Shown piece by piece: positions 8,842 through 23,908 of a DNA stretch of 64,000 bases (position 1 is the first letter of the stretch; every line of letters starts with the position of its first letter). The stretch spans positions 95,463 to 159,462 of the forward strand of contig CAZGFJ010000004.1 of the NCBI GenBank assembly GCA_964524935.1, in the 5' to 3' direction. The notes beneath the pieces are model-generated. The model worked only from the letters and a program-made list of their open reading frames with translations, had not been told where the DNA came from and searched no databases. This DNA is from an uncultured Ohtaekwangia sp. GTDB lineage: Bacteria > Bacteroidota > Bacteroidia > Cytophagales > Cyclobacteriaceae. Both the position numbers and the translations under genes were made by a program.

Positions 8842-8948
8842 GACGCTGACCGCAAGGGCAGGCGCTTTCGCAACGGCTTGCCATTGATGTAATTTTTATC
8901 GCGGGCGCAGCGTGTTTGTCTACTTTCGTGATCAAATCCCCTTTTGGC

Positions 8949-11771
8949 ATGAAAATGTATTTGACGGTTGCCGCCCTGGCAGTCATCTCCTCGGCAGTGG
9001 CACAAAAAAAAGCTGCTCCATCAATCGCGAAAAAACCCCTCACCCACGCGGTGTATGACGGTTGGAAAGAAATCCCGTACAAGCAGCTCACGCCCAATGG
9101 CGAAGTGGCGGCCGTCACGATCAATCCGCAGGAGGGTGATGGTAAAATTGTTTTCTACCATTTGAAAACGAATGCCCAGGATTCCATAAAACGGGCGGCC
9201 GAGATAGCCCTGACCCACGACAGCCGTCACGCCATTTTTAAGATCAAGCCCCCGCTAAAAGTCGTCAAAGACCTGCGCAGGCAGAAAAAGAAAAAAGAAG
9301 ACCTGCCCAAAGACTCGCTTGGTATTTACGCCATTGGCACGCGCAAAACGGAAAAGATACCCAACGTAAAGTCGTACAAAGTGGCGGAGAAGTCCGGTCA
9401 ATGGCTGGCCTATCAACTGGAACCCAAAAAAGAGGCCGCCAAACCCAAGGACGATAAGGCCAACCCCGGGGAAACAAAAAAGCCAGCCAAAAAAGTAAAA
9501 CCCAACAATGACGACAATGGCTACACCCTCGTGTTGCGAAATCTCACCAATCGTCAGGAACAGGTGTTTGGCTATGTGCGCGATTATGTGCTGGCCAAAG
9601 AAGGGCAAGGAGTGTTGTTCTCTACCGCGGGCAACGACAGCACGCTAAAGCCGGGCGTGTATTGGTACGATGGGGCCACGCTGCAAACGCTCTACGAAGG
9701 GAAAAGCAAATTCAAATACAAGGGCCTGTCCGTTTACGAAAAGGGAACAAAAGCCGCCTTTCTGGTGGATAGGGATACCACCAAAGCCCTTGTTCGTCAC
9801 TTCAAACTTTTTTTGTGGAATGCGGGGACTGCGCCAGCCAGTGAGCTGCCGGTGGAAGAGCAGTTGGGCATTCCCATCAACTGGGTCGTGAGCGAACACT
9901 ACACTCCCAACTTTTCCAAAGACGGCAACAAACTCTTTTTTGGTGCGGCCCCCAAGCCCGTGGTGGCCGATACCACGTTACTACCCGAAGAGATCGTGAA
10001 TGTAGAAGTGTGGACGGGCGATGACGACTACATCTATCCTCAACAAAACCGGCAACTGGATAACGAAAAGAAACGCTCCTACCTGATGGCGGTGGACTTG
10101 AACCAAGCAGGGAAAACCGTGTGGCAAGCGGGCAGCCCCGAAACGCCCAACATCGTGTGGGGCGATGAGGGCAACGCTTCGGTGGCATTGGCCGAAACCG
10201 ATGTGAACTACCGGAAGATGATCACCTGGGATACGCAGAACTTCTCGGACGTATATCTGTACGACTTTGCCCGGGGCTTGAAAAAGAAAATCGCCACAAA
10301 GCTCAAAGGGAACGTCTCACTTTCGCCCAAAGCCAACTTTGTTTACTGGTACAGCCTTGCCGACACGGCCTGGTTCAGCTACTCCATCGCACAGGACAAA
10401 ATCGTTTCGCTTACTGCGTCTCTTCCCGTGGCTTTCGCAGACGAAGAAGACGACCACCCCGACTACCCGGGCCCGTACGGCAGTGCCGGATGGACAAAGA
10501 ATGATGAAGCGATTATCGTCTACGATCGCTACGACCTGTGGAAACTGAACCCTCACGGTACCCAGCCCGCGGTGAACCTGACAAAAATTGGACGCACCGA
10601 AAGAATCCGCTTCCGCTACCTACGGCTGGATGCCGAAGAGCGTTTTATCAATCCTGACAAGGAACTTTTGCTCAGCGCCTTTCACGAAACCACCAAACAG
10701 GCGGGCTACTACAAACTCAATTTGAAAGACGGCAAGCTGACGAAGTTGCTGATGAGCGACCACCGCTATTCGTTTACGGCCAAGGCCAAACAAGCCAATC
10801 AGCTTTTGTTCACCCGCGAAAGCTTCCGCGAATACCCGGACGTATGGACCACCGACCTCTCGTTTGTGGCACCCAGGAAACTTACCGAGGCCAACCCCCA
10901 GATGAAAAACTACCTCTGGGGAAGTGTAGAGCGCGTGCGGTGGACATCTTTAGACAACATCCCGCTGGAAGGATTGCTGTACAAGCCGGAAGGCTTTGAC
11001 CCCAAAAAGAAGTATCCGATGATGGTGTATTTCTACGAAAAGTATGCGGATGATGTACACCAACACCATGCCCCCGCCCCCATCCGTTCGTTTATCAACT
11101 TTTCGCTGTATGCCAGCAACGGGTATGTGGTGTTTGTGCCGGATATCGTTTATAAAATCGGCTTCCCGGGCGAAAGTGCGCACAACTGCATCTTGCCCGG
11201 GGTCACCTCGCTGATCGAAAAGGGGTTTGTGGACGAAAAGCGCATCGGCATACAAGGGCATAGCTGGGGCGGCTACCAGACTGCCTATTTGGTTACGCGC
11301 ACCAACCTGTTTGCCGCGGCCGAAGCGGGCGCACCCGTAGTAAACATGATCAGCGCCTATGGGGGCGTGCGGTGGGAGAGCGGCCTGAGCCGGATGTTTC
11401 AATACGAAAAGAGCCAGAGCCGGCTGGGCGGCACGCTGTGGGAAAAGCCCCTGCTGTACATTGAAAACTCCCCCATCTTTTTTGCCGACAAAGTGCAGAC
11501 CCCGTTGCTCATGATGCACAACGATGCCGATGGGGCGGTGCCGTGGTACCAGGGCATCGAGTACTACATGGCCCTGCGCAGGCTGAACAAGCCTGTGTGG
11601 ATGCTAAACTACAATGGCCAGGGCCACGGGCTTACGCAGCGGCAAGACCGCACCGACTTTGCCATACGGATGATGCAGTTTTTCGACCATTACCTCAAGG
11701 GCGCCCCCCTGCCGGCCTGGATGAAAGAGGGCGTGCCCGCCATTGAAAAGGGGATCACCAAGGGGTATTAA
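8949..11771 (+). CDS. S9 family (prolyl oligopeptidase / acylaminoacyl-peptidase-like) serine peptidase
   Basis: ATG 8949 gives the signal peptide MKMYLTVAALAVISSAVAQ. C-terminal catalytic domain with 'IGIQGHSWGGYQTAY' (GxSxGG), 'HNDADGAV' and 'GQGHGL'. Confidence 0.85.
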   Translation: MKMYLTVAALAVISSAVAQKKAAPSIAKKPLTHAVYDGWKEIPYKQLTPNGEVAAVTINPQEGDGKIVFYHLKTNAQDSIKRAAEIALTHDSRHAIFKIKPPLKVVKDLRRQKKKKEDLPKDSLGIYAIGTRKTEKIPNVKSYKVAEKSGQWLAYQLEPKKEAAKPKDDKANPGETKKPAKKVKPNNDDNGYTLVLRNLTNRQEQVFGYVRDYVLAKEGQGVLFSTAGNDSTLKPGVYWYDGATLQTLYEGKSKFKYKGLSVYEKGTKAAFLVDRDTTKALVRHFKLFLWNAGTAPASELPVEEQLGIPINWVVSEHYTPNFSKDGNKLFFGAAPKPVVADTTLLPEEIVNVEVWTGDDDYIYPQQNRQLDNEKKRSYLMAVDLNQAGKTVWQAGSPETPNIVWGDEGNASVALAETDVNYRKMITWDTQNFSDVYLYDFARGLKKKIATKLKGNVSLSPKANFVYWYSLADTAWFSYSIAQDKIVSLTASLPVAFADEEDDHPDYPGPYGSAGWTKNDEAIIVYDRYDLWKLNPHGTQPAVNLTKIGRTERIRFRYLRLDAEERFINPDKELLLSAFHETTKQAGYYKLNLKDGKLTKLLMSDHRYSFTAKAKQANQLLFTRESFREYPDVWTTDLSFVAPRKLTEANPQMKNYLWGSVERVRWTSLDNIPLEGLLYKPEGFDPKKKYPMMVYFYEKYADDVHQHHAPAPIRSFINFSLYASNGYVVFVPDIVYKIGFPGESAHNCILPGVTSLIEKGFVDEKRIGIQGHSWGGYQTAYLVTRTNLFAAAEAGAPVVNMISAYGGVRWESGLSRMFQYEKSQSRLGGTLWEKPLLYIENSPIFFADKVQTPLLMMHNDADGAVPWYQGIEYYMALRRLNKPVWMLNYNGQGHGLTQRQDRTDFAIRMMQFFDHYLKGAPLPAWMKEGVPAIEKGITKGY

Positions 11772-11914
11772 GCCGCGTAACAAGCAAGCAAATTCCACAT
11801 AAGGCCGTGGCCCTGCCGGTTCCACGGCATTCTTACCTGGATAGCCGTTGTGCGGATATCTGCGTACATTCGCTGGATATACGAACGTAGTTCGTATATA
11901 TGGGAGTTAGCGGC
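11772..11914 (+). repeat. possible leftmost attC-like / junction site of the cassette array
   Basis: GCCGCGTAAC lies directly after the peptidase stop codon, and GTTAGCGGC lies at 11906-11914 (complementary apart from 1 extra base). Internal hairpins are gccgtgg…ccacggc and the palindrome at 11877-11899. Confidence 0.3.
11877..11899. repeat. perfect palindrome ATATACGAAC-GTA-GTTCGTATAT
   Basis: 10-bp arms and a 3-nt centre, read directly. Lies 6 nt upstream of GTTAGCGGC at the GC-rich/AT-rich boundary. Confidence 0.6.
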
Positions 11915-11931
11915 AACCGCGCAGGACAACA

Positions 11932-12450
11932 ATGACAACAATGATAAAACGACATTTGACAATATTGACATTGTTAATTTGTACATCTGTAACGGGACAA
12001 ACAATAGTTGGGGTCTGGACTGCAACTTCTGTAAGACTTGACGGTTCAGCAGACTCAAGACAGCTCCAAACAAAGGAAGATAAAGTTCGATTTACCTTTG
12101 ACAAAGACGGTTCCTATGTAAAGTCCTTTTATGTACCAAAAGACATGGATTCCAGACCTTTATATGCCGACTTTGAAATTAGGGATGGCCGCATCGAAAA
12201 AAGAGAATTTCTTGACAAAAACGGTTATAAACAGAAAATGATTGTTGTTTCAGAGAAAGTTGAAAAGGGAGAATATCATATTAACGTAACAAACGACACT
12301 ATCACATTTAAGTCAGTTCAATCACATGTTAAGAGCGGACTTAGTCTTGAGACATCAAGTATGTTAATCATTGAGACCGTTGACAATAGACCAATTTATA
12401 TTACTCTGCTGCCTGACAAGAAGAAAATAGGAAAGCGCGGCAGCCGCTAA
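11932..12450 (+). CDS. hypothetical secreted protein (cassette ORF)
   Basis: AT-rich ORF with the signal peptide (M)IKRHLTILTLLICTSVTGQ. Its TAA stop lies inside the attC-like core GCCGCTAAC. Confidence 0.6.
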   Translation: MTTMIKRHLTILTLLICTSVTGQTIVGVWTATSVRLDGSADSRQLQTKEDKVRFTFDKDGSYVKSFYVPKDMDSRPLYADFEIRDGRIEKREFLDKNGYKQKMIVVSEKVEKGEYHINVTNDTITFKSVQSHVKSGLSLETSSMLIIETVDNRPIYITLLPDKKKIGKRGSR

Positions 12451-12575
12451 CACCGGGTTTGTTTAATGGCGGGCGACACAGTCGCCCGTAGTGTCAGCAA
12501 GTTTATTTATATTCGTGTAGGCGGACAAATCCTCCGGATTTATCCGCCACTAAACAAACCCAAAACGTTGGCGGC
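12443..12575 (+). repeat. attC-like recombination site (133 bp)
   Basis: The 5' arm gccgcTaac-acc-gggtttgtttaAtggcgg pairs with the 3' arm ccgccActaaacaaaccc-aaaac-gttGgcggc. R boxes match 8/9 and L boxes 17/18, with unpaired spacers and extra inner hairpins. Confidence 0.6.
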
Positions 12576-12622
12576 AATGCTTCAGGACGGTTTGGACACA
12601 CTTGACATAAACAACTATAGAT

Positions 12623-13273
12623 ATGGCAAAAGAACTTCCTCCTTACGTAAACTCGACCGGACTACTTCAGGAACTCTTTAAAAAGATTCAAGAAGCCCCA
12701 CCACCAAGTAGGTTTAGCGGTGACTTTTTATTTACCAATTTGAAGTTTAAGAAATCTGGGAGTACGATTCCGTTTATTCCTTTTTTAAAACGGATTGGTT
12801 TCTTATCCACGGACGGTTCACCGACAGAGATATATAAAAAATTTAGAAACCCGGACACGAAGGTTTCCGGACAAGCAATGGCCCAAGCATTTAGGGTGGC
12901 TTATGCGGACTTATACAGTAGGAACGAATATTGGCATTCTAAATCCACTGAGGACTTAAAGAATTTTCTTGTTGAAGTTTTAGAAGTAGAAAAGAGTAAT
13001 CCCACTTTGACAGTCTTAATTAGAACTATCGAGACTTTAAAGAAGCTAGCAAATTTTGAAGCCTCGGTGGACACAGAGGAAGAAGAGGAAGAAGAACCTG
13101 AAACTGAAAAACAAAATAATTCGAATAACAGCGACCAAGCCAAACCAAAACATTCTGACTTGGCTGGAATTAATTTGTCTTATACAATTAATCTTAATTT
13201 ACCCGAAACTTCAGACGGCAAAGTATTCGATGCTATATTCAAGAGTTTAAAAGAAAATCTCCTTAAGAAATGA
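12623..13273 (+). CDS. DUF5343-like protein (N-terminal domain, acidic linker, short C-terminal tail)
   Basis: 216 aa. 'PPYVNSTGLLQELFKKIQEAPPPSRFSGDFL…IPFLKRIGFLSTDGSPTEIYKKFRN' is recognised as DUF5343-like. Followed by an EEEEEEEPETEKQNNSNNSD linker and an 'INLSYTINLNLPETSDGKVFDAIFKSLKENL' tail. Confidence 0.65.
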   Translation: MAKELPPYVNSTGLLQELFKKIQEAPPPSRFSGDFLFTNLKFKKSGSTIPFIPFLKRIGFLSTDGSPTEIYKKFRNPDTKVSGQAMAQAFRVAYADLYSRNEYWHSKSTEDLKNFLVEVLEVEKSNPTLTVLIRTIETLKKLANFEASVDTEEEEEEEPETEKQNNSNNSDQAKPKHSDLAGINLSYTINLNLPETSDGKVFDAIFKSLKENLLKK

Positions 13274-13854
13274 ATTTTTCAAATAACGAAAATGTCGTCA
13301 AGCTTTTTGGTATAACAAACCAATTTGCTGAGTTCGATTTGGACAGGGTTGAGAAACAATATCAAATTGACTTGGGACGTAAAAAAAATAAAGTCGAGAA
13401 GGATAATATTTATTACCCTCAGTTTGAATTGGAAGTTCGAAAGGAGGCCAAAAATATGGCCAAACACTATGAGATATTTTATTGCCTCGAGAAATCCATA
13501 CGCGATTTAATCTCTACGACTTTAGAAGCGACTGGCGAAGATTGGTGGGACAATAAAGCACCACAAGTTGTTAAAGATGAAGTTAGGAAAAGAATTCAGA
13601 GAGAAAGGGATTCTGGTGTAACCGTTCGGTCAGACGAGCCAATTGACTTTACGACATTTGGAGAACTAGGAGAGATAATTAAATCCAATTGGACAATTTT
13701 TCAAACAATATTCAATAGCATTAAAGCAGTTGAGAATGTTATGAATCAATTGAATACTCTTAGAGGACCAATTGCTCACTGCTCAAAATTAGCAGAGGAC
13801 GAAGAATTAAGATTGCAGATAACAGTTCGCGCTTGGTTTAGACTCATGGAATAA
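13270..13854 (+). CDS. Swt1-like HEPN domain protein (putative RNase, Rx4H motif)
   Basis: 194 aa with an ATGA overlap to the upstream ORF. 'FYCLEKSIRDLISTTLEATGEDWWD' plus the C-terminal 'LNTLRGPIAHCSKL' (R165…H170, nt 13762-13779) form a HEPN Rx4H motif. Confidence 0.7.
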   Translation: MNFSNNENVVKLFGITNQFAEFDLDRVEKQYQIDLGRKKNKVEKDNIYYPQFELEVRKEAKNMAKHYEIFYCLEKSIRDLISTTLEATGEDWWDNKAPQVVKDEVRKRIQRERDSGVTVRSDEPIDFTTFGELGEIIKSNWTIFQTIFNSIKAVENVMNQLNTLRGPIAHCSKLAEDEELRLQITVRAWFRLME

Positions 13855-13872
13855 GACCGGTGAAGAAGCACA

Positions 13873-14067
13873 GCCGCCAACAAAATGTTTATGCAATGCG
13901 GGCGTTCGGTGTTAAATTAAAGTTTATGTTTCATAATGTAGTTCGGTAACGGGGGACAGTTTGGAGCAGGTCGGGCTTAACACCTGCCTGCCGGCAAAGG
14001 CAGGTTCCGCTGCGCTTCATTTTTAAGCCCTCCTATTCCCCGCACTGCATAAACACAGACGTTAACG
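13873..14067 (+). repeat. attC-like recombination site (long, about 195 bp)
   Basis: The 5' core GCCGCCAAC is the exact complement of the previous site's GTTGGCGGC. L boxes tgtttatgcaAtgcggg / ccccgcActgcataaaca match 16/17. The 3' core is GTTAACG. The interior folds into a long imperfect stem (gggcttaa/ttaagccc, acctgcct/aggcaggt). Confidence 0.55.
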
Positions 14068-14140
14068 TTTATGCCTGCGGACTCCCAAAATAATTTGGAG
14101 TATATCTAAAAAGTATATACCTTTGGACAACGGTAATAGT

Positions 14141-14371
14141 ATGAAAAATCTATCATTAAAGCTGGAAGACGATATTTTTCAGGAGACTGAAAGAATCGTG
14201 ACAAAGGTTAAAAAAAGCCGCAATAGATATATAAACGAGGCTATTGAATTCTATAACAGACTTCATAAGCGGAGACTTCTTTCAAAGCAGTTGAGTAAGG
14301 AATCAAAAATGGTTTCCAAAGACTCATTGGAAATATTGGCAGAGTTTGAAAAACTGCACGATGAGGATTAA
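14141..14371 (+). CDS. ribbon-helix-helix (CopG-like) antitoxin
   Basis: 'MKNLSLKLEDDIFQETERIV…RNRYINEAIEFY' is an RHH N-terminus. Overlaps the mazF-like start. Confidence 0.75.
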   Translation: MKNLSLKLEDDIFQETERIVTKVKKSRNRYINEAIEFYNRLHKRRLLSKQLSKESKMVSKDSLEILAEFEKLHDED

Positions 14372-14705
14372 GCAATTTGAGATTTGGATTGCTGACTTAA
14401 ATCCAAGAATCGGAACAGAGACAGGAAAAATAAGACCTGTTATTGTTATTCAGACTGACTTACTAAATAAGGAACACCCATCGACTATTGTTTGCCCAAT
14501 AACGACAAACGTAAAACCTAACTCGGAGATATTGAGAGTTCATCTTAAAAAACGAAAATTTGGACTCAAGGAGGACTGTGACATAATGATTGATCAAATC
14601 AGAGCAATTGACAACAAACGACTTGTTAAAAAAGTCGGAGTTGTTGATAGCGACACAGCTGAAAAGATTGGAGAGAACTTAAAAATAGTTTTGGGCCTGG
14701 ACTAA
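14361..14705 (+). CDS. mazF: type II toxin, MazF/PemK family endoribonuclease
   Basis: 'FEIWIADLNPRIGTETGKIRPVIVIQTD…STIVCPITT…IMIDQIRAIDNKRL' is the canonical MazF/PemK signature. Confidence 0.85.
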   Translation: MRIKQFEIWIADLNPRIGTETGKIRPVIVIQTDLLNKEHPSTIVCPITTNVKPNSEILRVHLKKRKFGLKEDCDIMIDQIRAIDNKRLVKKVGVVDSDTAEKIGENLKIVLGLD

Positions 14706-14712
14706 TCGGCAC

Positions 14713-14990
14713 AAACGCCAACAGCGGTAGCTGTTGCACAACTATTGGTTTGAAAAAAAACGGAAAATTGGCGCCTGATTGCGCATACCTCTGTTGATAA
14801 CTCAGCGAGTGGAAGGATCTTCTGATTTTTTCGTCAATTCCAAACATAAAGGGTCACCCCAAACCAGCTTGCGGCTTGCTAATGCGCTTTTAGGATTCGC
14901 ATATAAGGGACTTATACCCCTCGGACAATCAAACTAAATTCCCGACTGGAAAGTAGTTGTGCCATACTGGGCACGCACAAAGTGTTTATC
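14713..14990 (+). repeat. degenerate or long attC-like site
   Basis: The 5' core AAACGCCAAC matches the complement of the previous GTTAACGTTT at 8/10. gcacaactat (14735-14744) pairs with gtagttgtgc (14954-14963) at 9/10. The 3' half is homologous to the island-1 site and ends in GTTTATC. The length is atypical. Confidence 0.3.
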
Positions 14991-15219
14991 CCAGCTGCGG
15001 GGGAAGTGCAAGTATGAAGTTTAGTTTTTATATTTCGTTTCGGCACGTGGGACAAGACGCGGCTTCGAAATCCGCAGCCGTCATAAATACGGGTCATTAT
15101 GCACAATGCCGAGGGACAGCGCAGTGGCAACCCGCATGGCCACGTGCATTGGCACATTTGCTTGCCGCTCAAATCCACCGTGAACCCAAAGCTACGGCAA
15201 GAGCCAAGTCTTTCCCGCT

Positions 15220-15987
15220 TCAAAACAAGCTTTTAAACGACTGCTCATTCTGAATAGTAATCATCATTTCTTCCACCGTTTTAACTACATGCTGATGAAC
15301 AAAATTACCGCTGCTAATACGCTTCACGCCTAATTTTTGCAGTTCTCCAAACGCGGGTAACTGCGGCATGCACATCACATTGATGGGCAATTTAGTAGAG
15401 ATCACTACCGCTTTGATGTCTTCCGGGTTAACAACGCAGGGCACAAAAATGCCATGTACTCCGGTGGTCTGATATTCTTGTATTCGTTGAATCGTTTCGG
15501 ATAGTGCATTCGGTAAGCCTTGTATAAATCCATCGGTTCGCACATTGATGAATAGCTTGATGTTCTTTCTTTGCAAGTGGCCAGCGATTTCTTCCAATGC
15601 CTTTCGGAAACTATCCAGTTCTTGAAGTGCACGCGGGTTTCCCGGCAACGAGTCTTCAATGTTGATGCCTACCACACCCACATCATGCAATCGCTCAATA
15701 TTCTGGCAAATGCCTTCAACGGTTCGACTAAATCCGCCTTCAATATCCACAGACAGTGGCAGATGGGTTACTTGATTAACACGTTTCGCAAGTTGAATCA
15801 GCAACTCAAATGGAAGCTGCTCACCATCCTCATACCCAAACGAATTAGCTACAGCCGCGCTGGAAGTAGCAATGGCCCTGTAACCGGCTCTCTCTACCAA
15901 CTGGGCACTTTTCACATCCCAAATATTCCCGATTAACAAGGGTTGTGATTGTTGATGCAGATTAAGGAAGTCTTCAAATGATTTCAT
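15220..15987 (-). CDS. isocitrate lyase / PEP mutase family protein
   Basis: 255 aa. 'LLIGNIWDVKSAQLVERAGYRAIATSSAAVA…LPLSVDIEGGF…GVVGINIEDS' matches the ICL/PEPM family. Confidence 0.8.
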   Translation of the reverse strand: MKSFEDFLNLHQQSQPLLIGNIWDVKSAQLVERAGYRAIATSSAAVANSFGYEDGEQLPFELLIQLAKRVNQVTHLPLSVDIEGGFSRTVEGICQNIERLHDVGVVGINIEDSLPGNPRALQELDSFRKALEEIAGHLQRKNIKLFINVRTDGFIQGLPNALSETIQRIQEYQTTGVHGIFVPCVVNPEDIKAVVISTKLPINVMCMPQLPAFGELQKLGVKRISSGNFVHQHVVKTVEEMMITIQNEQSFKSLF

Positions 15988-16120
15988 GGTTTTTATCTGT
16001 TACATCAGTTTCTTAATAAAGACACCCAGGCTTCGGTAGTTAATTTCAAAATCTCTTTTCCCAGACGAAATCTCAGCTAACACACCGGCTTGCCAACGGT
16101 TGCGTAAGTTAACCCCAAAC

Positions 16121-16615
16121 TTAAAAGCGTTCAAGCGTAAAGTCATTTTGCGACCCATACATCGTGACGTTTACTTCATTCTGAAGTAGTAAGCGAATCC
16201 CTTTCGAAATTGCCGGTTGCCAAGCCACAAAAACGAAGTGGTCGTGAAAGTTGTTCCTACTGATTTCTTTTGTGAGGTAGATATAAATAAACCAATCGCG
16301 GCTACCACAAATGTACTGAAACCCCAATGCGCTGTAAAGCCGCTGCGAGGTATAAACACTATTTGATGTTATACCTATACCGCTTTTAAAAGCGTACGCA
16401 ACGCTATTGAACGAATATAAAGCGGTGGTTTTATCATAAAAACCCGAAGCGAGGTTTCGCGAAAGCACCGGCCAACGCTTGAGTGAGTCCAGCGAAGTGC
16501 TGTGTATCACATCAATGCCTGTTCGCGCTGAACCTGCATTGACCTCGTATGTGGTTTGAGCAACGCAACATAAGCTCATAAAAAGAAAAAATACTGTGTT
16601 CCCAGAGTGTGACAT
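16121..16615 (-). CDS. putative outer-membrane beta-barrel-like protein (possibly frameshifted)
   Basis: ATG 16615 gives the signal peptide MSHSGNTVFFLFMSLCCVAQ and an alternating-hydrophobic beta-strand pattern. A 45-codon continuation exists in another frame down to about 16004. Confidence 0.45.
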   Translation of the reverse strand: MSHSGNTVFFLFMSLCCVAQTTYEVNAGSARTGIDVIHSTSLDSLKRWPVLSRNLASGFYDKTTALYSFNSVAYAFKSGIGITSNSVYTSQRLYSALGFQYICGSRDWFIYIYLTKEISRNNFHDHFVFVAWQPAISKGIRLLLQNEVNVTMYGSQNDFTLERF

Positions 16616-16701
16616 GACTATTTTCAGGCAAATAAAAAGCAATATCTTTGATGCCAGAAATACCATCTTTGACCACTTTTGATAACTATTGAGTATCAAT
16701 T

Positions 16702-17562
16702 ATGGAACTACGACATTTGCGCTACTTCAAACTCTTGGCTGAAGAACTTCATTTTCGGAAAGCCTCCGATAAACTTCATATCGCGCAACCTGCTTTGAGC
16801 CGACAGGTGAAAGAACTGGAGAAAGAACTCGGAGTAACGCTATTTGAACGAAACAGACGAAAGGTTGCACTATCGCCAATGGGCAAGCATCTGTACAACA
16901 AAACAATTGTCATCTTTAGATTAGTTGAGGAGACAAGGAAAGAGCTGAAGGAATTGGAGACGATGGAAGTGGGGAAATTGCGTGTTGGCTACGTTGCCTC
17001 GGCTTTGTACTCGGCTCTGCCCAGGTTCCTGGCTAGTCTGAAAAAAAATAAACCACGTCTGCAAGTATCTATTTGTGAAATGTCAACATCTGACCAAATT
17101 GAAAGTCTTCGAAATGGTTCGCTGGAGGTGGGCTTCGTACGCGGCCCTGTCAACAGCAAAGACCTCACGCAGACAATTGTTTACAAAGAAGACTTTGCCT
17201 TATTCCTTCCGGCCAATCATCCATTAGCGAAGAAGCGCCTTACCGACTTGCGCGTTTTACGAGATGAACCGTTTGTTTTCTTCCCTCGCCATTACAATCC
17301 GAGCTACTTCGATAAAACCATAAGTCTTTGCGAGCATGCAGGATTTTCGCCAAACATTCAGTATGAAGGCTTGGGCAGTAACACTCTGTTGCAAATGGTT
17401 GGCAGTGGACTCGGTGTTACGATTCTTCCTCACAGCCTGAAAAGTTCAATTAGCAAGGAAGTGAAATCATTTCCGCTGACATGGATTAGAGAAAAAGCTG
17501 AACTGGTAATGGTTACACAAGCAACCTTTGCTGAAAATAAAATATTTGACTTCAACGTATAG
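16702..17562 (+). CDS. LysR family transcriptional regulator
   Basis: 'MELRHLRYFKLLAEELHFRKASDKLHIAQPALSRQVKELEKELGVTLFER' is a LysR HTH. Divergent from the 16121-16615 and 15220-15987 genes. Confidence 0.85.
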   Translation: MELRHLRYFKLLAEELHFRKASDKLHIAQPALSRQVKELEKELGVTLFERNRRKVALSPMGKHLYNKTIVIFRLVEETRKELKELETMEVGKLRVGYVASALYSALPRFLASLKKNKPRLQVSICEMSTSDQIESLRNGSLEVGFVRGPVNSKDLTQTIVYKEDFALFLPANHPLAKKRLTDLRVLRDEPFVFFPRHYNPSYFDKTISLCEHAGFSPNIQYEGLGSNTLLQMVGSGLGVTILPHSLKSSISKEVKSFPLTWIREKAELVMVTQATFAENKIFDFNV

Positions 17563-17828
17563 TTGGTTTCATGTGACCGCACACACATTGGCAGGCCTCA
17601 CATCCGACCCGCATCCAAAGCCAACCAAAGAATGTGCTCAGTATAGTGTAGATAGAGAAAGTTGTCAGTGAACAATGCCACACCACAAGACTGACTAAAA
17701 AAGAGTTGTATAAATTAACGGGTGACAGGAATGCAGGCCACAAATGACGTGTGGACTTGGGCCCCACAGCTACCATCAGCATGTTTCTGCAATGATGCCG
17801 TGAAGAGTTGGTATAACGTTTTATCTTC

Positions 17829-17898
17829 GTTCCACGTTTTGTTTCGTAGGACAGGACGCGGCCTCGGAATGGCACTGCAGAAACACAAACGTCAGCGG
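17829..17898 (+). repeat. weak attC-like site
   Basis: acgttttgtttc (17834-45) pairs with gaaacacaaacgt (17880-92) with one bulged base. The 3' core is GTCAGCGG (17891-98), whose exact complement CCGCTGAC occurs at 20235-42. The 5' core is poor. Confidence 0.3.
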
Positions 17899-17942
17899 TA
17901 ATACCACAAGCGACTTTCCAACTATCAACAGTCAGACAGAAA

Positions 17943-18662
17943 ATGAACGACACCGACACAAAACGACTTTCACGACTAATTGCAATTTTAACACAACTGC
18001 AAACAAAACGACTTTTGACGGCTCCGGATTTAGCGAACAAGTTTTCGGTTAGCACCCGAACCATTTACCGAGACATCAAAGCATTGGAACAAGCAGGCGT
18101 CCCCATTCTGACAGAAGACGGAAAAGGTTATACTTTAATGGATGGTTACAGAATGCCGCCAGTAATGTTTTCCGAAAGTGAGGCTAATGCTTTGATTACA
18201 GCCGAAAAATTGATTTTAAAAAACAAAGACGCATCTCTTGTAAAGGACTACACCGAAGCCATCACTAAAATCAAATCTGTATTACGAAGCCACACAAAAG
18301 ACAAGGCCAATTTGCTTTCTAATCGCATTAGATCAGGACAAAACACCGGCAGTACTCGTACAAGCAACAATTTATCGACCCTTCAATTAGCTTTGACAAA
18401 TTTTAAGGTTGTCAAAATAAAATATTATTCGCCAGAAAATAACCAAGCCACAGAAAGAACCGTAGAACCATTTGCCATTTACACTTCACAGGAAAATTGG
18501 TTGCTCATTGCGCTTTGCAGATTGAGAAATGACTACAGGGCATTTCGTTTAGATAGAATTGAAAGCTTGTTGGTGCAAAACCACACATTTGAACCTCATA
18601 AAATGACATTTGAGGAGTATTTTGACATTTGCAGAAAAAAATGTACACCACCCTTGACATAG
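17943..18662 (+). CDS. YafY-type HTH + WYL domain transcriptional regulator
   Basis: 'RLSRLIAILTQLQTKRLLTAPDLANKFSVSTRTIYRDIKALEQAGVPI' is the HTH and 'ERTVEPFAIY…WLLIALCRLRNDYRAFRLDRI' is the WYL domain. Confidence 0.8.
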   Translation: MNDTDTKRLSRLIAILTQLQTKRLLTAPDLANKFSVSTRTIYRDIKALEQAGVPILTEDGKGYTLMDGYRMPPVMFSESEANALITAEKLILKNKDASLVKDYTEAITKIKSVLRSHTKDKANLLSNRIRSGQNTGSTRTSNNLSTLQLALTNFKVVKIKYYSPENNQATERTVEPFAIYTSQENWLLIALCRLRNDYRAFRLDRIESLLVQNHTFEPHKMTFEEYFDICRKKCTPPLT

Positions 18663-18713
18663 GGCTGTCACAAGAGCATTCCAGTTTTGCAACCTAATCA
18701 ACATTAACTGATA

Positions 18714-19274
18714 ATGAACAACAACTTTCACAACTTAATTCTTCTTGCATTAATACTACCCTCATTCACAGCTCAATCTCAAATACAAAAAAATACATAT
18801 AAGACATTGAACACTCAAACTATTCAAAAATTCCACGTGATCGGAATTTCAACAAGAACAACGAATGAAAATGGACAATCTGTCAAAGACATCGAAGCAT
18901 TGTGGGGTACGTTTTGGGGCGAAGAAATTCAAAAACAAATTCCCAATAAAGTGAGTGATGAAATTTATGCAGTTTATACAAATTATGAAGCCGATTTCAC
19001 AAAGTCTTACACCACGATTTTAGGGTTACCAGTACGTTCGTTAGAAAATATTCCTAAGGGATTTGTTGGCATAACAATTGAAACTTCCACGTACCAAAAA
19101 TTTGTCTCCAAGGGTAAAATGCCAGACGCTGTTTTCAATACTTGGTTAGAAATATGGGGAAATAACGAACTAAACTTAAAACGAGCCTACAAAGCAGACT
19201 TTACTATTCACGGACAAAAGTATTATGATGGAGACAAAGCAGAAGTAGAAACTTTTATATCCGTAAAAGAATAA
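18714..19274 (+). CDS. GyrI-like small-molecule-binding domain protein with a signal peptide
   Basis: 'FHVIGISTRTTNENGQSVKDIEALWGTFW…YAVYTNYE…FNTWLEIW' follows the GyrI-like / AraC-effector-binding pattern. Confidence 0.7.
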   Translation: MNNNFHNLILLALILPSFTAQSQIQKNTYKTLNTQTIQKFHVIGISTRTTNENGQSVKDIEALWGTFWGEEIQKQIPNKVSDEIYAVYTNYEADFTKSYTTILGLPVRSLENIPKGFVGITIETSTYQKFVSKGKMPDAVFNTWLEIWGNNELNLKRAYKADFTIHGQKYYDGDKAEVETFISVKE

Positions 19275-19293
19275 ATTGATTGAAAAGCACATA

Positions 19294-19354
19294 CGCCTAA
19301 CAGTTTTGCAAAACCAGCCTGCCGCAGGCTCGCCAAGCCGAAAACCGTTAGCGG
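19294..19354 (+). repeat. attC-like recombination site (61 bp, canonical size)
   Basis: cGCCTAACagttttgc …agcctg-ccg-caggct… cgaaaaccGTTAGCGg. It has RYYYAAC/GTTRRRY cores, paired L boxes and a central hairpin, and starts 20 nt after the stop codon. Confidence 0.65.
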
Positions 19355-19415
19355 TCATTGTAAAACCATCCTACAACATCGAAAGACGATAGACAGAAAC
19401 AAAAACAATTTGAAA

Positions 19416-20225
19416 ATGAAAGTATTTATAATTGACGCATTTACAAACGAGGCATTTAAAGGCAATCCAGCAGGTGTTTGTTTATTGGAAAATGAAATTA
19501 GCGTTGAGACAATGCAAGCGATTGCCACTGAAATCAACCTGTCTGAAACTGCATTTTTAAAACAGAATAATAACTCCGATACCGACTATTCAGTTAGGTA
19601 TTTCACGCCAACTGTTGAAATAGATTTTTGCGGACACGCCACATTGGCATCTGCAAAACTAATTCTGCATCATTTGCAAAAGTCATCTGTGAATTTTACC
19701 ACTTTCCGTAATTTGAAGTTAAGTGCTACAAGCCAAGGTGAAGATATCAAAATGAAATTTCCAATTTATGAAACTATAAACTTTACGCCTACGAAAGAAC
19801 TATATGAAGTATTTGATATTAAAAGCCCCGTTGCAACAAAATTTGCAAAGGACTTAGAAATGTTAGTTGTTGAAGTTCAGGATAAAGAAACATTGTTAAA
19901 CATAAAGCCAGATTTTGTAAAAGCAATTCAAACTTCTGATAAAATAAAAGAATTAGTCGTTACTGCAAAGTCGAAAGACAAAGAATATGACTTTTATTCA
20001 CGTTGCTTTTGTCCTTGGATAGGAATAAACGAAGACCCGGTGACAGGTGCATCACATTCTGTTTTAGCTAAATATTGGAGTGAAATTTTAGGAAAGTCCG
20101 AAATGATTGCTTTTCAATCCTCGAAACGTGGTGGATTTATGAAATTGCAAATTCTTAGTGATACCGAACTTGTAGTTACAAGTAATGCTAAAATTATATT
20201 TGAAGGAAAAATGAATATCGAATAA
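19416..20225 (+). CDS. PhzF family isomerase
   Basis: 'MKVFIIDAFTNEAFKGNPAGVCLL…INLSETAFL…RYFTPTVEIDFCGHATLA…DPVTGASHSVLAKYW' matches PhzF. Confidence 0.85.
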   Translation: MKVFIIDAFTNEAFKGNPAGVCLLENEISVETMQAIATEINLSETAFLKQNNNSDTDYSVRYFTPTVEIDFCGHATLASAKLILHHLQKSSVNFTTFRNLKLSATSQGEDIKMKFPIYETINFTPTKELYEVFDIKSPVATKFAKDLEMLVVEVQDKETLLNIKPDFVKAIQTSDKIKELVVTAKSKDKEYDFYSRCFCPWIGINEDPVTGASHSVLAKYWSEILGKSEMIAFQSSKRGGFMKLQILSDTELVVTSNAKIIFEGKMNIE

Positions 20226-20307
20226 GCCAACGAACCGCTGACATGGTATTGCCAAAAGAGGTTCCTACAGTGCAACCTCGCTAACGAATTAAATTTTCCT
20301 GTTCGCA
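20225..20307 (+). repeat. possible attC-like site (poorly paired)
   Basis: AGCCAAC lies directly after the stop codon, and …CCGCTGAC matches the complement of the upstream GTTAGCGGTC at 8/10. There is a central hairpin gaggtt/aacctc and a GTTCGCA at 20301-07. The L boxes do not pair convincingly. Confidence 0.25.
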
Positions 20308-20435
20308 AAAGGCGATGATGTTTTGCTTCAGGCAGTTCAAGCCAAACAAAAATTAGTACATTGAAATTGGATAAACAGCAAAAGAAAGTGAGATTTATGA
20401 CAATTTGTTAGAATTAATTTGCCAACTGGTAATGT

Positions 20436-20987
20436 ATGGTCCAGAAAATGACACAACGAGCCAATTTTGCTCTTCAATTCCTCAGAGGCCTCTTGACAAT
20501 TTTGATACTCTTCTCACTAAATGTCGCATTTTGTCAAGCAACTTCCCGAAAGCTACCAGAACCATCACAAGATCAAATCAAAAAAAAGTCATCAGAAAAA
20601 GGATTAGCCTATCTGGAAGGAAATTTTAAGAAAGAGGGAATTCGAGTAAATCTAAAAGAATCAATCGATTGCGTGGATGCAAACAAAAGCAACAACTGTG
20701 TCTGTGCGTGGCAGCAACATTTTGAAGGCGGAATTGAATATAGCTACAATGAATGTCGTGGTTCTGTAATCGAAACGACCATCACCTTCACGGATTATGA
20801 CTCGAAAGAGATTACTAAATTTGTAGACATTTTATTCAAGGCAGGCAGCAACGTCTGGAATCGTGAGAAAACCGAGTATAAACTAAAAACTGACTACGTA
20901 CCTAAAGAGGGAGACCTTACCTGCAACTATCAAATCAAACAACAAAATGGCAAAGTTGTACTAATCTGCATTTGCGCATGGTGGTGA
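20436..20987 (+). CDS. hypothetical secreted Cys-containing protein
   Basis: AT-rich ORF with a signal-like N-terminus (…LLTILILFSLNVAFCQA). No recognisable domain. Confidence 0.55.
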   Translation: MVQKMTQRANFALQFLRGLLTILILFSLNVAFCQATSRKLPEPSQDQIKKKSSEKGLAYLEGNFKKEGIRVNLKESIDCVDANKSNNCVCAWQQHFEGGIEYSYNECRGSVIETTITFTDYDSKEITKFVDILFKAGSNVWNREKTEYKLKTDYVPKEGDLTCNYQIKQQNGKVVLICICAWW

Positions 20988-21189
20988 CGTACTTGAGTTT
21001 CTTTAGCAATCAATCATTACTGAGCGACAAGAATTCCTGAACGCGTAGAGAGTCGGCAGCTGTAAATCAGTATGCGTGTTGAAAGCTAGATACCTGGAGA
21101 CACGATGATCAGAAATTCAGCGTTTCAAGGTTTAAAGTCTATCTTCGTCCAACGTTTGGTGTCAGACTAACCAAACACTTCCATCCCGC

Positions 21190-23608
21190 CTACTCATTCT
21201 TCAAATGCTGTACAGGGTTGACGAACATCGCCCGCAGTGTCTGCGAGGCGATGGTCACTCCGCCAAAGGCCAGCAGCACAGCCATGCTCGTGAGCACGAT
21301 GGACACGCTGAAAGAAGCGCGATAGGCAATCAGTTGCAACCACAGGTTATTGACGAAATACGCCAGCGGCACACCCAGCGCCACCGACATCGCCAACAAC
21401 CCGACAAACCCCTTCGACAGGAGCACAACGAGCGAGCCGTTGGACGAGCCCAGCACTTTGCGGATGGAAATTTCTTTGATGCGGGTTTCGGTGGTATATG
21501 TGGCCATGCCCAACAGCCCCAAACACGAAATGAATATCGCCAAAAAAGAGATGACTGCCAGCACCCGGGCAATGTCGCCAAAAATGATCTCATAAAACTG
21601 CTTCACTTCCGAATCCACCGGTTCAACGTCCGCCTTCAGGCCCGGATTCACCGCGGCCCACGCACCCTCGATTACGCGCGCCACTTCTGCATAGGTGCCG
21701 GTATAGGAAACTTGCAACAGGTTAAACTGGGCGCTGTCGTACACCAGCGCCATGGGCGAAATGGGCTGCGTCAGGTCGCGGTGGTTGTAGTCGGCCACCA
21801 CGCCCAAAATGGTTCGCTCGCTGGAGTCGCGTTCGATCAGCAGCGTCTGCCCCACGGCCTCCTGAGCGGATGCAAACCGAAAGTGGGTGACAGCCGTTTG
21901 GTTGATGACGACATAGTTTTGGGTGACGGCCGTTGCGCGGTCGGAGAAAAAACGCCCGGCCACCAGGGGCACGCCCATGTTCGTGAGGTAGTCTTCGTCA
22001 ACCAAAAAGTATCCCATGTTGCTCCACTCCGGATCGTCCAGTGCCCGCTTATACCCTTCGCCATACGAAGTGCCGGAGGCCGGCAGATGCGAAGCGGCCG
22101 CCACGTGTAACACATTCGCGTGCTTGAGCAGTTCTGTTTTCAGTACATCGGCCGGGGTGTCGTTCAACCGTATGGCTACGTTGTGCGTCATGTTGAATCC
22201 GTGGTCCTGCCGCAGAAAGATGTTGATCTGCCGGTGGAGCACCAATACCGAAAGGATGAAAAACAACGACAGTGTAAACTGCGACACCAGAAGCGCCTTG
22301 CGCAAGCCCAGGCGCGAGAACAGTTTTACGTTGTTCAGATTCTTCAACACCTTGATGGGCTGAAATCCCGACAGCACGGCTGCGGGAAACAAGCCTGCCA
22401 GCAGGCCCACGAGCACGGCAAAGGTGACAAACACCGCCAGCACGGTGGTGTTCATGGCCAGATCCCACCGGAAGATGCGCGCAAAGTTCAATTGCAAAAT
22501 CATCGGCTTCACCAACAGCAAAAGCACCATCGCAAAAAGCAGGGCCACAAATGCCAGCAACACCGATTCGCTCAAAAACTGACTTACCAGTTGCCAGCGT
22601 GCCGCACCTGTCACTTTGCGGATGCCGATCTCCCGCGCCCGCGTGAGCGAGCGGGCAATGGACAGGTTGGTAAAGTTGAAACACGAGGTGAGCAAGATAA
22701 CCAATGCCAGGCCACCCAGGAAGTACACAAAAAACCACGGCAGTACAGGGCCGATGGGGTTGTTGGTGAGCGGCCCGGGGGTGATCTCCATCAACGGTTG
22801 CAATCCAAACTTCATTTTATGTACCCCGGGGTTGTCAATGCTTGCGATGTGCCGCTCGAAAATCTGGTCGAGGTGGCGTTGGAGTTGATCGCGGGTTTGT
22901 TCAGGTTGGGTCAACACATAGGTCCACCCGTTCCAGTAGTTGGTCCATTGGCTGAGCACATCTTTGTTCGGTAAGCTGTTTACCGTGCTCATGCTGGCCA
23001 AGGCTTCAAACACCAGGTGCGACTTGTGATCGGTTTCTTTGACGATACCCGTCACCGTGTACGTGCCCAGGTCGCCCACTTTGATGGTTTGTCCAAGTGC
23101 ATTTCCGTTGGCAAAGTTTGTGTGCGGCCTGATGGGTGAGTACAACCGTGAAGGGTTGGATCAAGGCCGTGGCGGCATCGCCCGCCTCCAACTCATAGCC
23201 GAACACTTCCAGGACTTCCGGGTCGGCAAAAAAACCGGCCAGCGGAATGTTTACGTTTTGGTTTTCGAATTCCAGCCAGCCATTACCAAAACCGCGCATC
23301 AACCTCACCACGCGCTGCTGGCCGGTATAGGCTTCGAGCAATTCCTGGCGCAGGGTCAGGGGCGAGGTAGCGCTCGTTTGCCCAGTTGTCATTTGCCCGG
23401 TGCCATCCACATCGTGTGTGGTGATGCGATAAATACGGTGGCGGAGCGGATTGTGGCGATCGTAGGTGAGTTGGTCGGCCACCAGCATGATGATGCCCAT
23501 GCAAATGGACATCGCTACAGACAAGCCCAGGATGTTGATCGCTGAGAAAAATCGGTGGCGGAATAAGCTGCGATAAGCAGTTCGGAGGTAGTTTTTAAGC
23601 AACGTCAT
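21190..23608 (-). pseudogene. FtsX/MacB-type ABC transporter permease (about 800 aa) interrupted by a frameshift
   Basis: The N-terminal ORF (MTLLKNYLRTAYRSLFRHRFFSAINILGLSVAMS…TVVLTHQAAHKL) continues in another frame as FANGNALGQTIKVGDLGTYTVTG…. The shift falls at aaactttgcc, about 23113-23122. Two FtsX 4-TM modules are present. Confidence 0.75.
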
Positions 23609-23784
23609 GAACGGTGAAGTTTCGGTTTTGTGGACAAGCCTGCCGGGTGAGCAAAAAACAAGCCCGTGTGCTAATCGTGGGTTTGGACGCCAATAACCGA
23701 CAACAGGTTTCAGGGAGTGTTGAAAAATGAACACCACGTACACACCAGGCGAACAATGCGGGCAAGCCCGGTTGAAAATGATTT

Positions 23785-23825: not shown

Positions 23826-23900
23826 GGTGAATGTAGCTCAGTTGGTTAGAGCACCAGATTGTGATTCTGGGGGTCGCGGGTTCAAGTCCCGTCTTTCACC
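23826..23900 (+). tRNA. tRNA-His: tRNA-His (anticodon GTG), with encoded G-1
   Basis: Cloverleaf read by eye: G-1, acceptor gtgaatg/ctttcac, D arm gctc…gagc, anticodon arm ccaga-ttGTGat-tctgg, T arm gcggg-ttcaagt-cccgt. No encoded CCA. Confidence 0.9.
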
Positions 23901-23908
23901 CTAAAAAA

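Follow-up and report, generated by a model that had tools for sequence, protein, structure and literature searches.

A probable integron-type cassette array, with no recombinase gene in its 64-kb surroundings, on a Cytophagales chromosome

Results

Organization of the locus

The stretch of contig CAZGFJ010000004.1 analyzed here (64,000 nucleotides, referred to as the window) carries at 11,772-21,189 an AT-rich island in which co-oriented gene cassettes are followed by attC-type sites. We read this island, with a probability of about 0.85, as an integron-type cassette array on a Cytophagales chromosome, of the kind known as CALIN, in which attC sites cluster without an integron integrase, with no recombinase in cis. 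An initial annotation, made from the sequence alone, had proposed a CALIN-type array, and this stood up to the analysis: cassettes with attC-type sites were found at 11.8-21.2 kb, and no tyrosine recombinase was found in the 64 kb. The left neighbor of the island is a core gene for an S9 peptidase (951 aa, 8916-11771), whose product is nearest to those of Cyclobacteriaceae/Ohtaekwangia metagenome-assembled genomes (MAGs), and ATP synthase, GOGAT, and IMPDH are also encoded in the window. The GC content, 0.52-0.57 in the surroundings, drops to 0.34-0.47 across 11.9-21.0 kb. On the right, a MacB-like permease gene (21190-23743, minus strand) is followed by tRNA-His (23827-23901).

The coordinates of the cassettes are collected in Table 1. 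The attI-like entry region contains GATATACGAACGT at 11876-11888 and a palindrome with 10-bp arms at 11878-11900. When the cassette products were compared with Pfam, the open reading frame (ORF) of cassette 1 matched Lipocalin_4 slightly under the cutoff, the regulator at 17943-18662 matched WYL/HTH_11, and its neighbor matched Cass2 (PF14526), an integron-associated effector-binding protein, with an E of 7e-22; the family search with ORF 20436-20987 gave no match. The Cass2, MazF, HEPN, and PhzF-like proteins are typical integron cargo, and the toxin-antitoxin cassettes that had been announced are represented by one cassette with a MazF/PemK toxin and by the HEPN cassette. The segment at 15097-17562, with genes identified by Pfam, has a GC content of 0.44 versus 0.34-0.40 in the cassettes. 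The earlier suspicion that the 15.0-17.8 kb region is atypical was reasonable, as it begins like a cassette, with a leader, and yet has genes on the minus strand; it is a cassette that has been rearranged or invaded. The remnant at the array end can be aligned with TCTTCGTyCAACGTTTGGT, a motif internal to attC, and 21129-21195 of the window shares 90% identity with 22358-22425 of L001, a related genome locus considered below. To the right of it, the MacB/FtsX-type permease is divided into two overlapping ORFs, 21190-23145 (651 aa) and 23006-23743 (245 aa, N-terminal MacB_PCD), which suggests a frameshift or a sequencing error.

Table 1. Coordinates of the features of the island in the window (R and L, attC boxes)
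Feature	Position	Strand	Content
attI-like entry region (A0)	11772-11906	+	directly after the S9 peptidase stop; ends at junction GGGAG|TT (G = 11906)
Cassette 1	11907-12567	+	lipocalin-like ORF 11932-12450; type-A attC 12443-12575
attC boxes of cassette 1	R'' 12443-12451, L'' 12455-12472, L' 12544-12561, R' 12567-12575	+	
Cassette 2	12568-14061	+	DUF5343 12623-13273; HEPN_Swt1 13270-13854 (Pfam); long type-A attC 13873-14069
Cassette 3	14062-15096	+	small ORF 14123-14371; MazF/PemK toxin 14346-14705 (PemK_toxin E 5e-29); split attC
attC of cassette 3	R'' 14715-14723, L''...L' 14977-15090, R' 15096		insertion like a miniature inverted-repeat transposable element (MITE-like) 14727-14975; R' mutated, ATTATGCAC
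Atypical segment	15097-17562	mixed	leader 15097-15210; PEP_mutase 15220-15987 (minus); unknown ORF 16121-16699 (minus); LysR 16702-17562 (plus)
ORF-less conserved segment with complete type-A attC	17563-17902	+	attC 17767-17902
Boxes of attC 17767-17902	R'' 17769-17777, L'' 17782-17794, L' 17873-17885, R' 17891-17899		R'' GCTACCATC; R' GTCAGCGGT
HTH+WYL / Cass2 cassette	17892-19347	+	HTH+WYL regulator 17943-18662; Cass2 protein 18714-19274; short attC 19292-19355
PhzF cassette	19348-20435	+	PhzF-like isomerase 19410-20225 (PhzC-PhzF E 1e-61); R'' ACCGCTGAC 20234-20242
Last ORF and array end	20436-21189	+	ORF 20436-20987; truncated type-A attC remnant ~21129-21170 abutting the MacB-like stop (21190)

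An AT-rich island near a tRNA gene, at a locus that varies between relatives, could also be a tRNA-His-targeted island or a prophage remnant inserted by a phage-type integrase. We regard this as very improbable: the island is 5' of the tRNA with the GC-normal MacB gene between the two, no tRNA-derived direct repeat was found (the longest match was 10-11 nt), and neither an integrase nor phage genes were found in the window. The Phage_integrase domain was present in none of the 50 window ORFs of at least 150 aa, and tBLASTn of the window gave no match with the recombinase of the metagenome contig L170 (described below) or with an IntI1 query, which does detect the L170 recombinase. This is in line with the initial annotation, where no intI or other tyrosine recombinase had been noticed. 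An Rfam scan of the window returned tRNA only, and Rfam is without an attC family.

The attC site family

Four sites, three from the window (12440-12580, 13870-14074, and 17762-17902) and one from L001 (14007-14147), aligned over their full length, including the loop. A degenerate pattern taken from this alignment, TGTTTNYGYAATG N70-100 CACYGCRNAARCNCNNNCG, was run against metagenome contigs and matched at least 120 of them; on these, a profile search found 346 copies in co-oriented arrays with a spacing of 0.5-1.3 kb and at most 13 copies per contig. We used nhmmer profiles and our own counts of base pairs, and the final hidden Markov model (HMM) was rebuilt from 362 metagenomic sites only, avoiding circularity. 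In the window, it matched the sites at 13871-14071 (E 1e-29), 17767-17902 (2e-29), 14977-15090 (3e-19), and 12441-12578 (1e-12), all on the plus strand and just past ORF ends. There was no further match in the 64 kb, and the best E in 20 shuffled windows was 0.36. The initial annotation had accepted that a failure of an attC model to find sites at these places would speak against it; a profile without any window sequence does find them. The short site at 19292-19355 was not matched by this HMM and is outside the family, here called type A. Four type-A sites and one heterologous site are clustered within 11.8-19.4 kb, in excess of the minimum of two, no more than 4 kb apart, that is asked of an attC cluster.

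The three best sites had been placed correctly before. The L arms of the site 12443-12575 (12455-12472 and 12544-12561) match at 17/18 positions and those of the site 13873-14069 (13886-13902 and 14039-14055) at 16/17, the values originally given, and the 61-bp hairpin of the site 19292-19355 is present, though with a weaker fold (z = -2.1). The stop codon said to lie inside an R box is the TAA at 12448-12450, within the R'' box. The sites listed as weak fared unevenly. In 14713-14990, the R'' core (14715-14723) is real, but the remainder is the MITE-like insertion of ~250 bp, and the attC resumes at 14977-15090. The site 17829-17898 is part of a real one, but just the 3' half of 17767-17902, with mutated cores (ATC and GTC). 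A true R'' (ACCGCTGAC) lies inside 20225-20307; its AAC is changed to GAC, the 3' part of the site is degenerate, and since neither a convincing L stem nor an R' was found, its 3' end is undefined. The proposal of an attC at 11772-11914 had to be dropped: 11772-11906 gave no match to the attC HMM, and the sequence is instead a leader shared with L001 that ends at the junction GGGAG|TT. A site after ORF 20436-20987 was also sought, and none was definable.

Looser searches were of little use. Searching for AAC...GTT plus a 9-bp stem gave too much noise (18 hits in the window against 2-11 in shuffled sequences), and only stems of 16-17 bp stood out. A blind scan of the island for chained ends (GTT plus 6 nt, 6 nt plus AAC) gave 19 perfect pairs against a shuffle mean of 6.5, and was useful only at known ORF ends.

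The sites have the hairpin layout R''(..AAC)-spacer-L''...L'-spacer-R'(GTT..), with AAC in 311/330 and GTT in 338/345 sites and spacers of 4 and 5 nt. The L stem is 17 bp long; among 363 unique sites, 16 of its pairs are Watson-Crick in 81-100%, with many compensatory types, e.g., CG 119 / GC 106 / AT 76 at one pair. Because pairing is kept with abundant compensatory changes, the attC stem is under structural selection. The bottom strand of 12443-12575 folded into R stem, internal loop, and L stem (z = -6.4), and that of 13873-14069 likewise, with a long L stem. In 97% of 327 sites, one L-stem position reads A.C on the top strand and hence G.T on the bottom strand; this invariant, strand-asymmetric mismatch may take the role that bulged bases have in classical attC sites and set the choice of strand.

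The loop and flanks are near-invariant at profile positions 2-5, 85-89, 98-100, and 139-141 (e.g., window 13871-14073), unlike those of classical attC. R'' is preceded by CAGC, R' is followed by ATG, and the loop contains GGACA and TTC; these conserved motifs may be binding sites for the N-terminal domain of the recombinase described below or for a host factor.

Junctions between cassettes

The diagnostic point of the initial annotation was that the 5' core of a site matches the 3' core of the preceding site better than its own. For this comparison, two 9-nt boxes were taken per site by profile coordinates, one closing with AAC (R'') and one opening with GTT (R'), in 213 consecutive site pairs from 120 of the at least 120 matched metagenome contigs and from related loci. 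In 192/213 pairs, the 6 nt after the GTT of one site were the perfect complement of the 6 nt before the AAC of the next (mean 5.8/6). Within a site, R' and R'' agreed at only 2.84/6 positions, which is identical to random pairing. The argument therefore applies across the attC family. The chain scores in the window were 9/9, 9/9, 7/9, and 8/9. The first two, GTTAGCGGC (11906) with GCCGCTAAC (12443) and GTTGGCGGC (12567) with GCCGCCAAC (13873), are as originally reported; the third pairing, GTTAACGTT (14061) with AACGCCAAC (14715), was also seen, but it scores 7/9 in place of the 8/10 first given. In the PhzF cassette, the outer 6 nt of R'' match the preceding R', GTTAGCGGT, at 6/6.

Exchange at G|TT of circular cassettes with an array yields this pattern. 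A cassette would be a promoterless-looking unit of the form TTNNNNNN...ORF(s)...NNNNNNAAC-4nt-L''...loop...L'-5nt-G. In the circular form, its two ends would pair as a 9-bp R stem and an L stem of ~17 bp, and if exchange occurs between G and TT of the 3' core, the six bases past GTT would always be those of the next cassette.

The same sites are GC-rich imperfect palindromes just past stop codons, like terminators and repetitive extragenic palindromes (REPs), and this raises the question of whether they are host repeats of the REP, bacterial interspersed mosaic element (BIME), or terminator type in an ordinary horizontally acquired cluster. Dispersed repeats or terminators would lack the chain signature, which excludes them as its source. 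Copies at other places had been named in advance as counter-evidence; the 64 kb held no copy beyond the island, and 80 related genome loci (~1.6 Mb) held none away from arrays, the copies there being those in the homologous L001 arrays and a single one in L006. The perfect chain in 192/213 pairs, single-cassette polymorphism exactly at G|TT, and the physical linkage of the sites to a dedicated recombinase (both below) likewise leave the host-repeat explanation hardly credible.

Turnover and decay of the array

A conserved syntenic block with no variation in cassettes, the third outcome that would have counted against an array, is not what the relatives display. In L001 (S9 peptidase 90% identical, MacB 98% identical), the same flanks enclose an AT-rich island of equal length, and the 12 island proteins of the window had 0 matches in it; its cassettes encode DUF6438, a Por-tail protein, a C5 methylase, and an UvrD-PD-(D/E)XK nuclease. 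In L002 (S9 peptidase 83% identical), the S9 stop is followed by 80 bp and tRNA-His, i.e., an empty locus without an array. The entry regions of the window (11772-11917) and L001 (12856-13013) are 83-85% identical, ending at GGGAG|TT. Past G|TT, the sequence of each is complementary to the R'' of the first cassette that it carries: the window has TTAGCGGC / GCCGCTAAC and L001 has TTGGCGGC / GCCGCCAAC. Because the junction is the same, the first cassettes differ, and the flanking proteins are 90-98% identical, cassettes have been exchanged at the entry junction since the window and L001 split. This places an integron-type array, with content that turned over between close relatives, on the chromosome of a soil or water Cytophagales. 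Window 17576-17726, in the ORF-less segment, is 79% identical to L001 22001-22151.

The entry region is also related to the attI of complete elements, with GATATACGAACGT matching at 12/13 positions the attI core GATATACCAACGT found past the recombinase stop in L170 and L203. A 3' remnant of a recombinase gene was looked for in the first 100 nt of the entry region, and only a weak likeness was found (ATTCCAcATAAGG vs ATTCCAATAAGGG), which we do not claim as one.

The array could, on the other hand, be a dead fossil, built by past site-specific recombination and no longer mobilizable in this genome. The absence of a recombinase within 64 kb fits this view, and so do the mutated cores: R' is ATT at 15096 and GTC at 17891, and R'' is ATC at 17775 and GAC at 20240. 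In addition, one attC holds the MITE-like element, the last site is truncated, and chain matches in the right half go down to 7/9 and lower. Against it, the cores and stems of the first two cassettes are perfect, and the different first cassettes of the window and L001 at an identical junction, between flanking proteins that are 90-98% identical, indicate recent turnover. Moreover, an integrase encoded elsewhere in the genome can act in trans on CALINs, as has been established in the case of classical integrons (Cury et al. 2016, PMC4889954). We therefore judge a complete fossil rather unlikely. Under the reading as a cassette array, the array of the window would be partly decayed, with intact cores in the first two cassettes only and with three sites bearing core mutations, one the MITE-like insertion, and the last truncated; it is probably only partly competent, with two intact cassettes.

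A search with the HEPN cassette protein yielded nothing but short contigs identical to the window and was uninformative on shuffling. The contig L081 (Logan assembly of ERR3494955) is 100% identical to window 12540-14034, and L082 (Logan assembly of ERR3494948) is 99.9% identical to 12503-13906; both ends of each fall inside attC sites. The same strain is therefore present in both public runs, and short-read assemblies break at repeats.

A recombinase linked to the site family

In the metagenome contig L170, a gene for a tyrosine recombinase is directly upstream of, and co-oriented with, four cassettes. The recombinase stop is followed by a small hairpin and by GATATACCAACG|TTGGCACC, and from here the chain is 9/9 through each of the 4 cassettes. 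The recombinase belongs to a family of 5,561 database proteins at E < 1e-40, of ~372 aa and annotated as XerD or 'site-specific integrase', whose hosts are Cyclobacteriaceae, Bacteroidia, and the isolate Chryseosolibacter indicus. Homologues led to seven further loci, and in all 8 loci TTATAKCCARACG|TT occurs just after the recombinase stop. The first R'' complements the bases past the attI G|TT at 9/9 in L170, 9/9 in L207 (Chryseosolibacter indicus), and 8/9 in L205, a contig of 4.66 Mb. In the latter, the chain could be walked from attI through 11 cassettes, with 9/9 at all save the first; in L207, it runs through 2 cassettes to the contig end. Three contigs end less than 1 kb from the recombinase gene, which fits assembly breaks within repeated sites. 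L205 and L206, whose recombinases are identical, differ by one 468-bp cassette, located precisely at ...CCAGACG|TT. An attI next to the recombinase gene and receiving cassettes at G|TT is thus present in relatives, and the window retains an attI-like junction without the integrase gene.

Two side observations concern these loci. In the 11-cassette array of L205, a 769-bp cassette occurs twice (15998-16766 and 17714-18482), with R' GTTAGCGGT, R'' ACCGCTAAC, and an 88-bp attC; such duplication is also seen in sedentary integrons. In L208 and L210 (two MAGs), the recombinase gene is at a syntenic position downstream of recQ, which suggests a sedentary recombinase platform with vertical inheritance in part of the family.

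The catalytic residues are present in the recombinase, and its XerA_Arch score is 213 bits for a cutoff of 220. The spacing from GKGxKDR to HxLRH is 58 aa in 97/98 family members, compared with 100 in IntI1, and an AlphaFold model (predicted local distance difference test, pLDDT, 80) showed no extra helix at the position of the additional domain of integron integrases. The best structural neighbors of the model were XerA and VchIntIA, about equally. The array-linked recombinases also have a 62-aa N-terminal alpha/beta domain (P0043 / L205 10001-11110; pLDDT ~90) that XerA, XerD, and IntI lack and that no PDB match explained.

Given such an enzyme, recombination could be a duplex, Xer-type exchange as in pdif modules, in which core sites around ...AACG|TT recombine and the long palindromes are accessory. 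The recombinase is nearest to XerA (5hxy and 4a8e; 33-34% identity) and lacks the I2 helix, or additional domain, which lies near patch III and which IntI uses for single-stranded attC; AAACAC.AACG to the left of G|TT is kept between sites and could be an overlap region; and the attI of L170 holds a duplex palindrome, CCAACGTTGG. Duplex core sites, however, need neither the strong covariation of L'' and L', which are ~80 nt apart, nor R''/R' complementarity per cassette, and the strand-asymmetric mismatch (G.T / A.C) is sensible only for a folded single strand or a cruciform. The sites are furthermore co-oriented, whereas pdif modules alternate in inverted orientation. Taken together, these points make the duplex explanation improbable. 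According to the cassette-array reading, recombination would take place on the folded bottom strand, as in classical integrons, and for the window it would be catalyzed in trans by a member of this ~370-aa Xer-like family, as suggested by the co-oriented upstream gene in complete relatives.

Several observations weigh against an integron-type array in the strict sense. No recombinase is encoded within the 64-kb window, so mobilization would have to be in trans, and the data fit both single-strand and double-strand recombination, which they do not distinguish. The extrahelical bulged bases of classical attC were sought in the L stem and none was found, an asymmetric 4/5-nt spacer being kept. 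The R cores CGCYAAC / GTTRGCG fit RYYYAAC / GTTRRRY only in part. The right part of the array is degenerate, with mutated cores, the undefined 3' end of the PhzF site, and minus-strand genes at 15.1-17.6 kb. Finally, the recombinase scored 199 bits with TIGR02249, in two stretches, versus a cutoff of 265, and is without the additional domain, having 24 aa where VchIntIA (2a3v) has 67; by the standard definition, the elements are not IntI-type integrons.

Relation to known systems

The window array resembles CALINs and sedentary chromosomal integrons (Cury et al. 2016, PMC4889954; Neron et al. 2022, PMC9024848) in its co-oriented short ORFs with AAC...GTT palindromes, the G|TT crossover seen as complementarity to the next cassette, its toxin-antitoxin and Cass2 cargo, and the lack of an integrase in cis. 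The homogeneous attC family within one lineage recalls the Vibrio cholerae repeats (VCRs) of Vibrio. The differences from classical CALINs are the Cytophagales host, the G.T/A.C mismatch in place of bulges, the conserved loop (GGACA and TTC), and a linked recombinase with no additional domain. In complete RefSeq Bacteroidetes genomes, only In0 elements and one complete integron, that of Salinibacter, were reported (PMC9024848). The feature in the window is a CALIN, a known kind of element, in an under-represented phylum (PMC9024848, PMC8618304); what is new in the family is the integrase without additional domain, the mismatch instead of bulges, and the conserved loop motifs. The literature searched held no account of this attC family or of a Bacteroidota integrase lacking the additional domain, although coverage was incomplete and this is no proof of novelty.

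In L170, L203, L205, and L207, the recombinase gene is co-oriented with the cassettes, like those of the inverted-integrase ('reverse') integrons of Treponema and related groups and of the archaeal integrons (PMC4889954; PMC9668308), and the insertion site is ~25-45 nt past the recombinase stop, comparable to the archaeal attI immediately downstream of intI. The Treponema-type and archaeal integrases keep the IntI additional domain, and the Cytophagales recombinase does not. The latter resembles the Xer enzymes (XerA/XerC/XerD), being nearest to archaeal XerA in sequence and predicted fold, with the full catalytic set and no I2 helix, and the folded attC looks like dif, with paired binding arms that flank a spacer. 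Unlike dif and pdif, which are 28-bp duplex sites, the sites are covarying hairpins of ~130 nt and are co-oriented; unlike Xer, the recombinase has the extra N-terminal alpha/beta domain of ~62 aa and adjoins cassette arrays, not the replication terminus.

The additional domain was reportedly used by Messier and Roy in 2001, and also by Cury et al. in 2016, to define integron integrases. Recombinases near attC sites that lack it have been judged not to be IntI (Cury et al., PMC4889954), and single-strand recombination has been explained by the gain of the I2 helix (Escudero et al. 2016 and 2020; PMC4792948, PMC7790495). The link of the attC family with an I2-less recombinase either conflicts with this additional-domain rule or represents a parallel system. 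A wider proposal, for which the odds seem to us just short of even, is that these elements form a widespread Cytophagales/Bacteroidota integron lineage, with a Xer-like integrase that has an extra N-terminal domain and no I2, and with a G.T/A.C mismatch instead of extrahelical bases. If so, cassette recombination would have been solved independently here, or a stage of integron evolution from before I2 would have survived, and tools that need the IntI C-terminal profile would call all such elements CALIN. If the enzyme does recombine the sites, the rule that no additional domain means no integron would under-count integrons, many Bacteroidota CALINs would really be complete integrons, and the role of the I2 helix could be tested in a natural I2-less system with a cultured host, Chryseosolibacter indicus.

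Elements within the array and a second variable locus

The inverted-repeat element at 14727-14975 (~250 bp) starts 4 nt past the AAC core of the MazF-cassette attC. The same element was found at the same attC position in three copies in L001 (14912-15030, 16880, and 22210-22326) and in L100 (~1070-2764). The copy of L100 is 1.7 kb long and encodes a DDE transposase (DUF772 + DDE_Tnp_1_6); those of the window and L001 are 120-250 bp. The terminal repeats of the insertion sequence (IS) are GT(A/G)GCTGTTGCACAAC...GTTGTGCAACAAGCAC. Because the same element is at the same attC position in L001 and L100, and the intact L100 copy has a transposase, the window copy is probably a MITE-like derivative of an attC-targeting IS. 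IS1111-attC elements and group IIC-attC introns (PMC3001079) likewise occupy one fixed position within attC; unlike those, the element here is of the DDE type, with no IS110/IS1111 DEDD enzyme and no intron reverse transcriptase, so from its sequence it appears to be an attC-targeting element of another transposase class than IS1111-attC. Accordingly, other assignments were discarded: an IS1111-attC-like nature of the inverted-repeat element, given the DDE transposase encoded by L100; an IS110/IS1111-type remnant at 16.9-17.6 kb of L001, where Pfam found nothing and for which the intact L100 copy is again DDE; and a group IIC-attC intron, of which no domains were found by Rfam.

The leader at 15097-15210 starts with TTATGCACAATGCCG, which is common to cassette starts in L120 and L182, and has a hairpin at ~15148-15207. 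Copies of this leader (~110 nt) occur in the window, in L001 (17800-17896), and, with 12 copies, in metagenomes (e.g., L092 1100-1215), 20-30 nt upstream of a cassette ORF. The hairpin has the form TTGGCAC-stem...N25...CCAAAGC-stem-AGAGCCAA, and its arms covary across the 14 copies, with pairs such as CCATAGC/GCTATGG, TTGCTTGC/GCAAGCAA, and CCATTGC/GCAATGG; the arms of the window copy are mismatched. No Rfam match was obtained for the hairpin.

A second AT-rich variable locus is found 9 kb upstream, after a glyoxalase-like gene, at 510-2700 of the window (582-3300 in L001). It has a DUF6985/ankyrin gene (670-1863) and a DUF433 + DUF5615 pair (1968-2650), and GTTAACGC at 1992 faces GCGTAAC at 2677-2683. 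The attC profile gave no match on the window locus, and the counterpart in L001 has other genes and a type-A attC at 847-985. The locus is likely a second, candidate cassette cluster.

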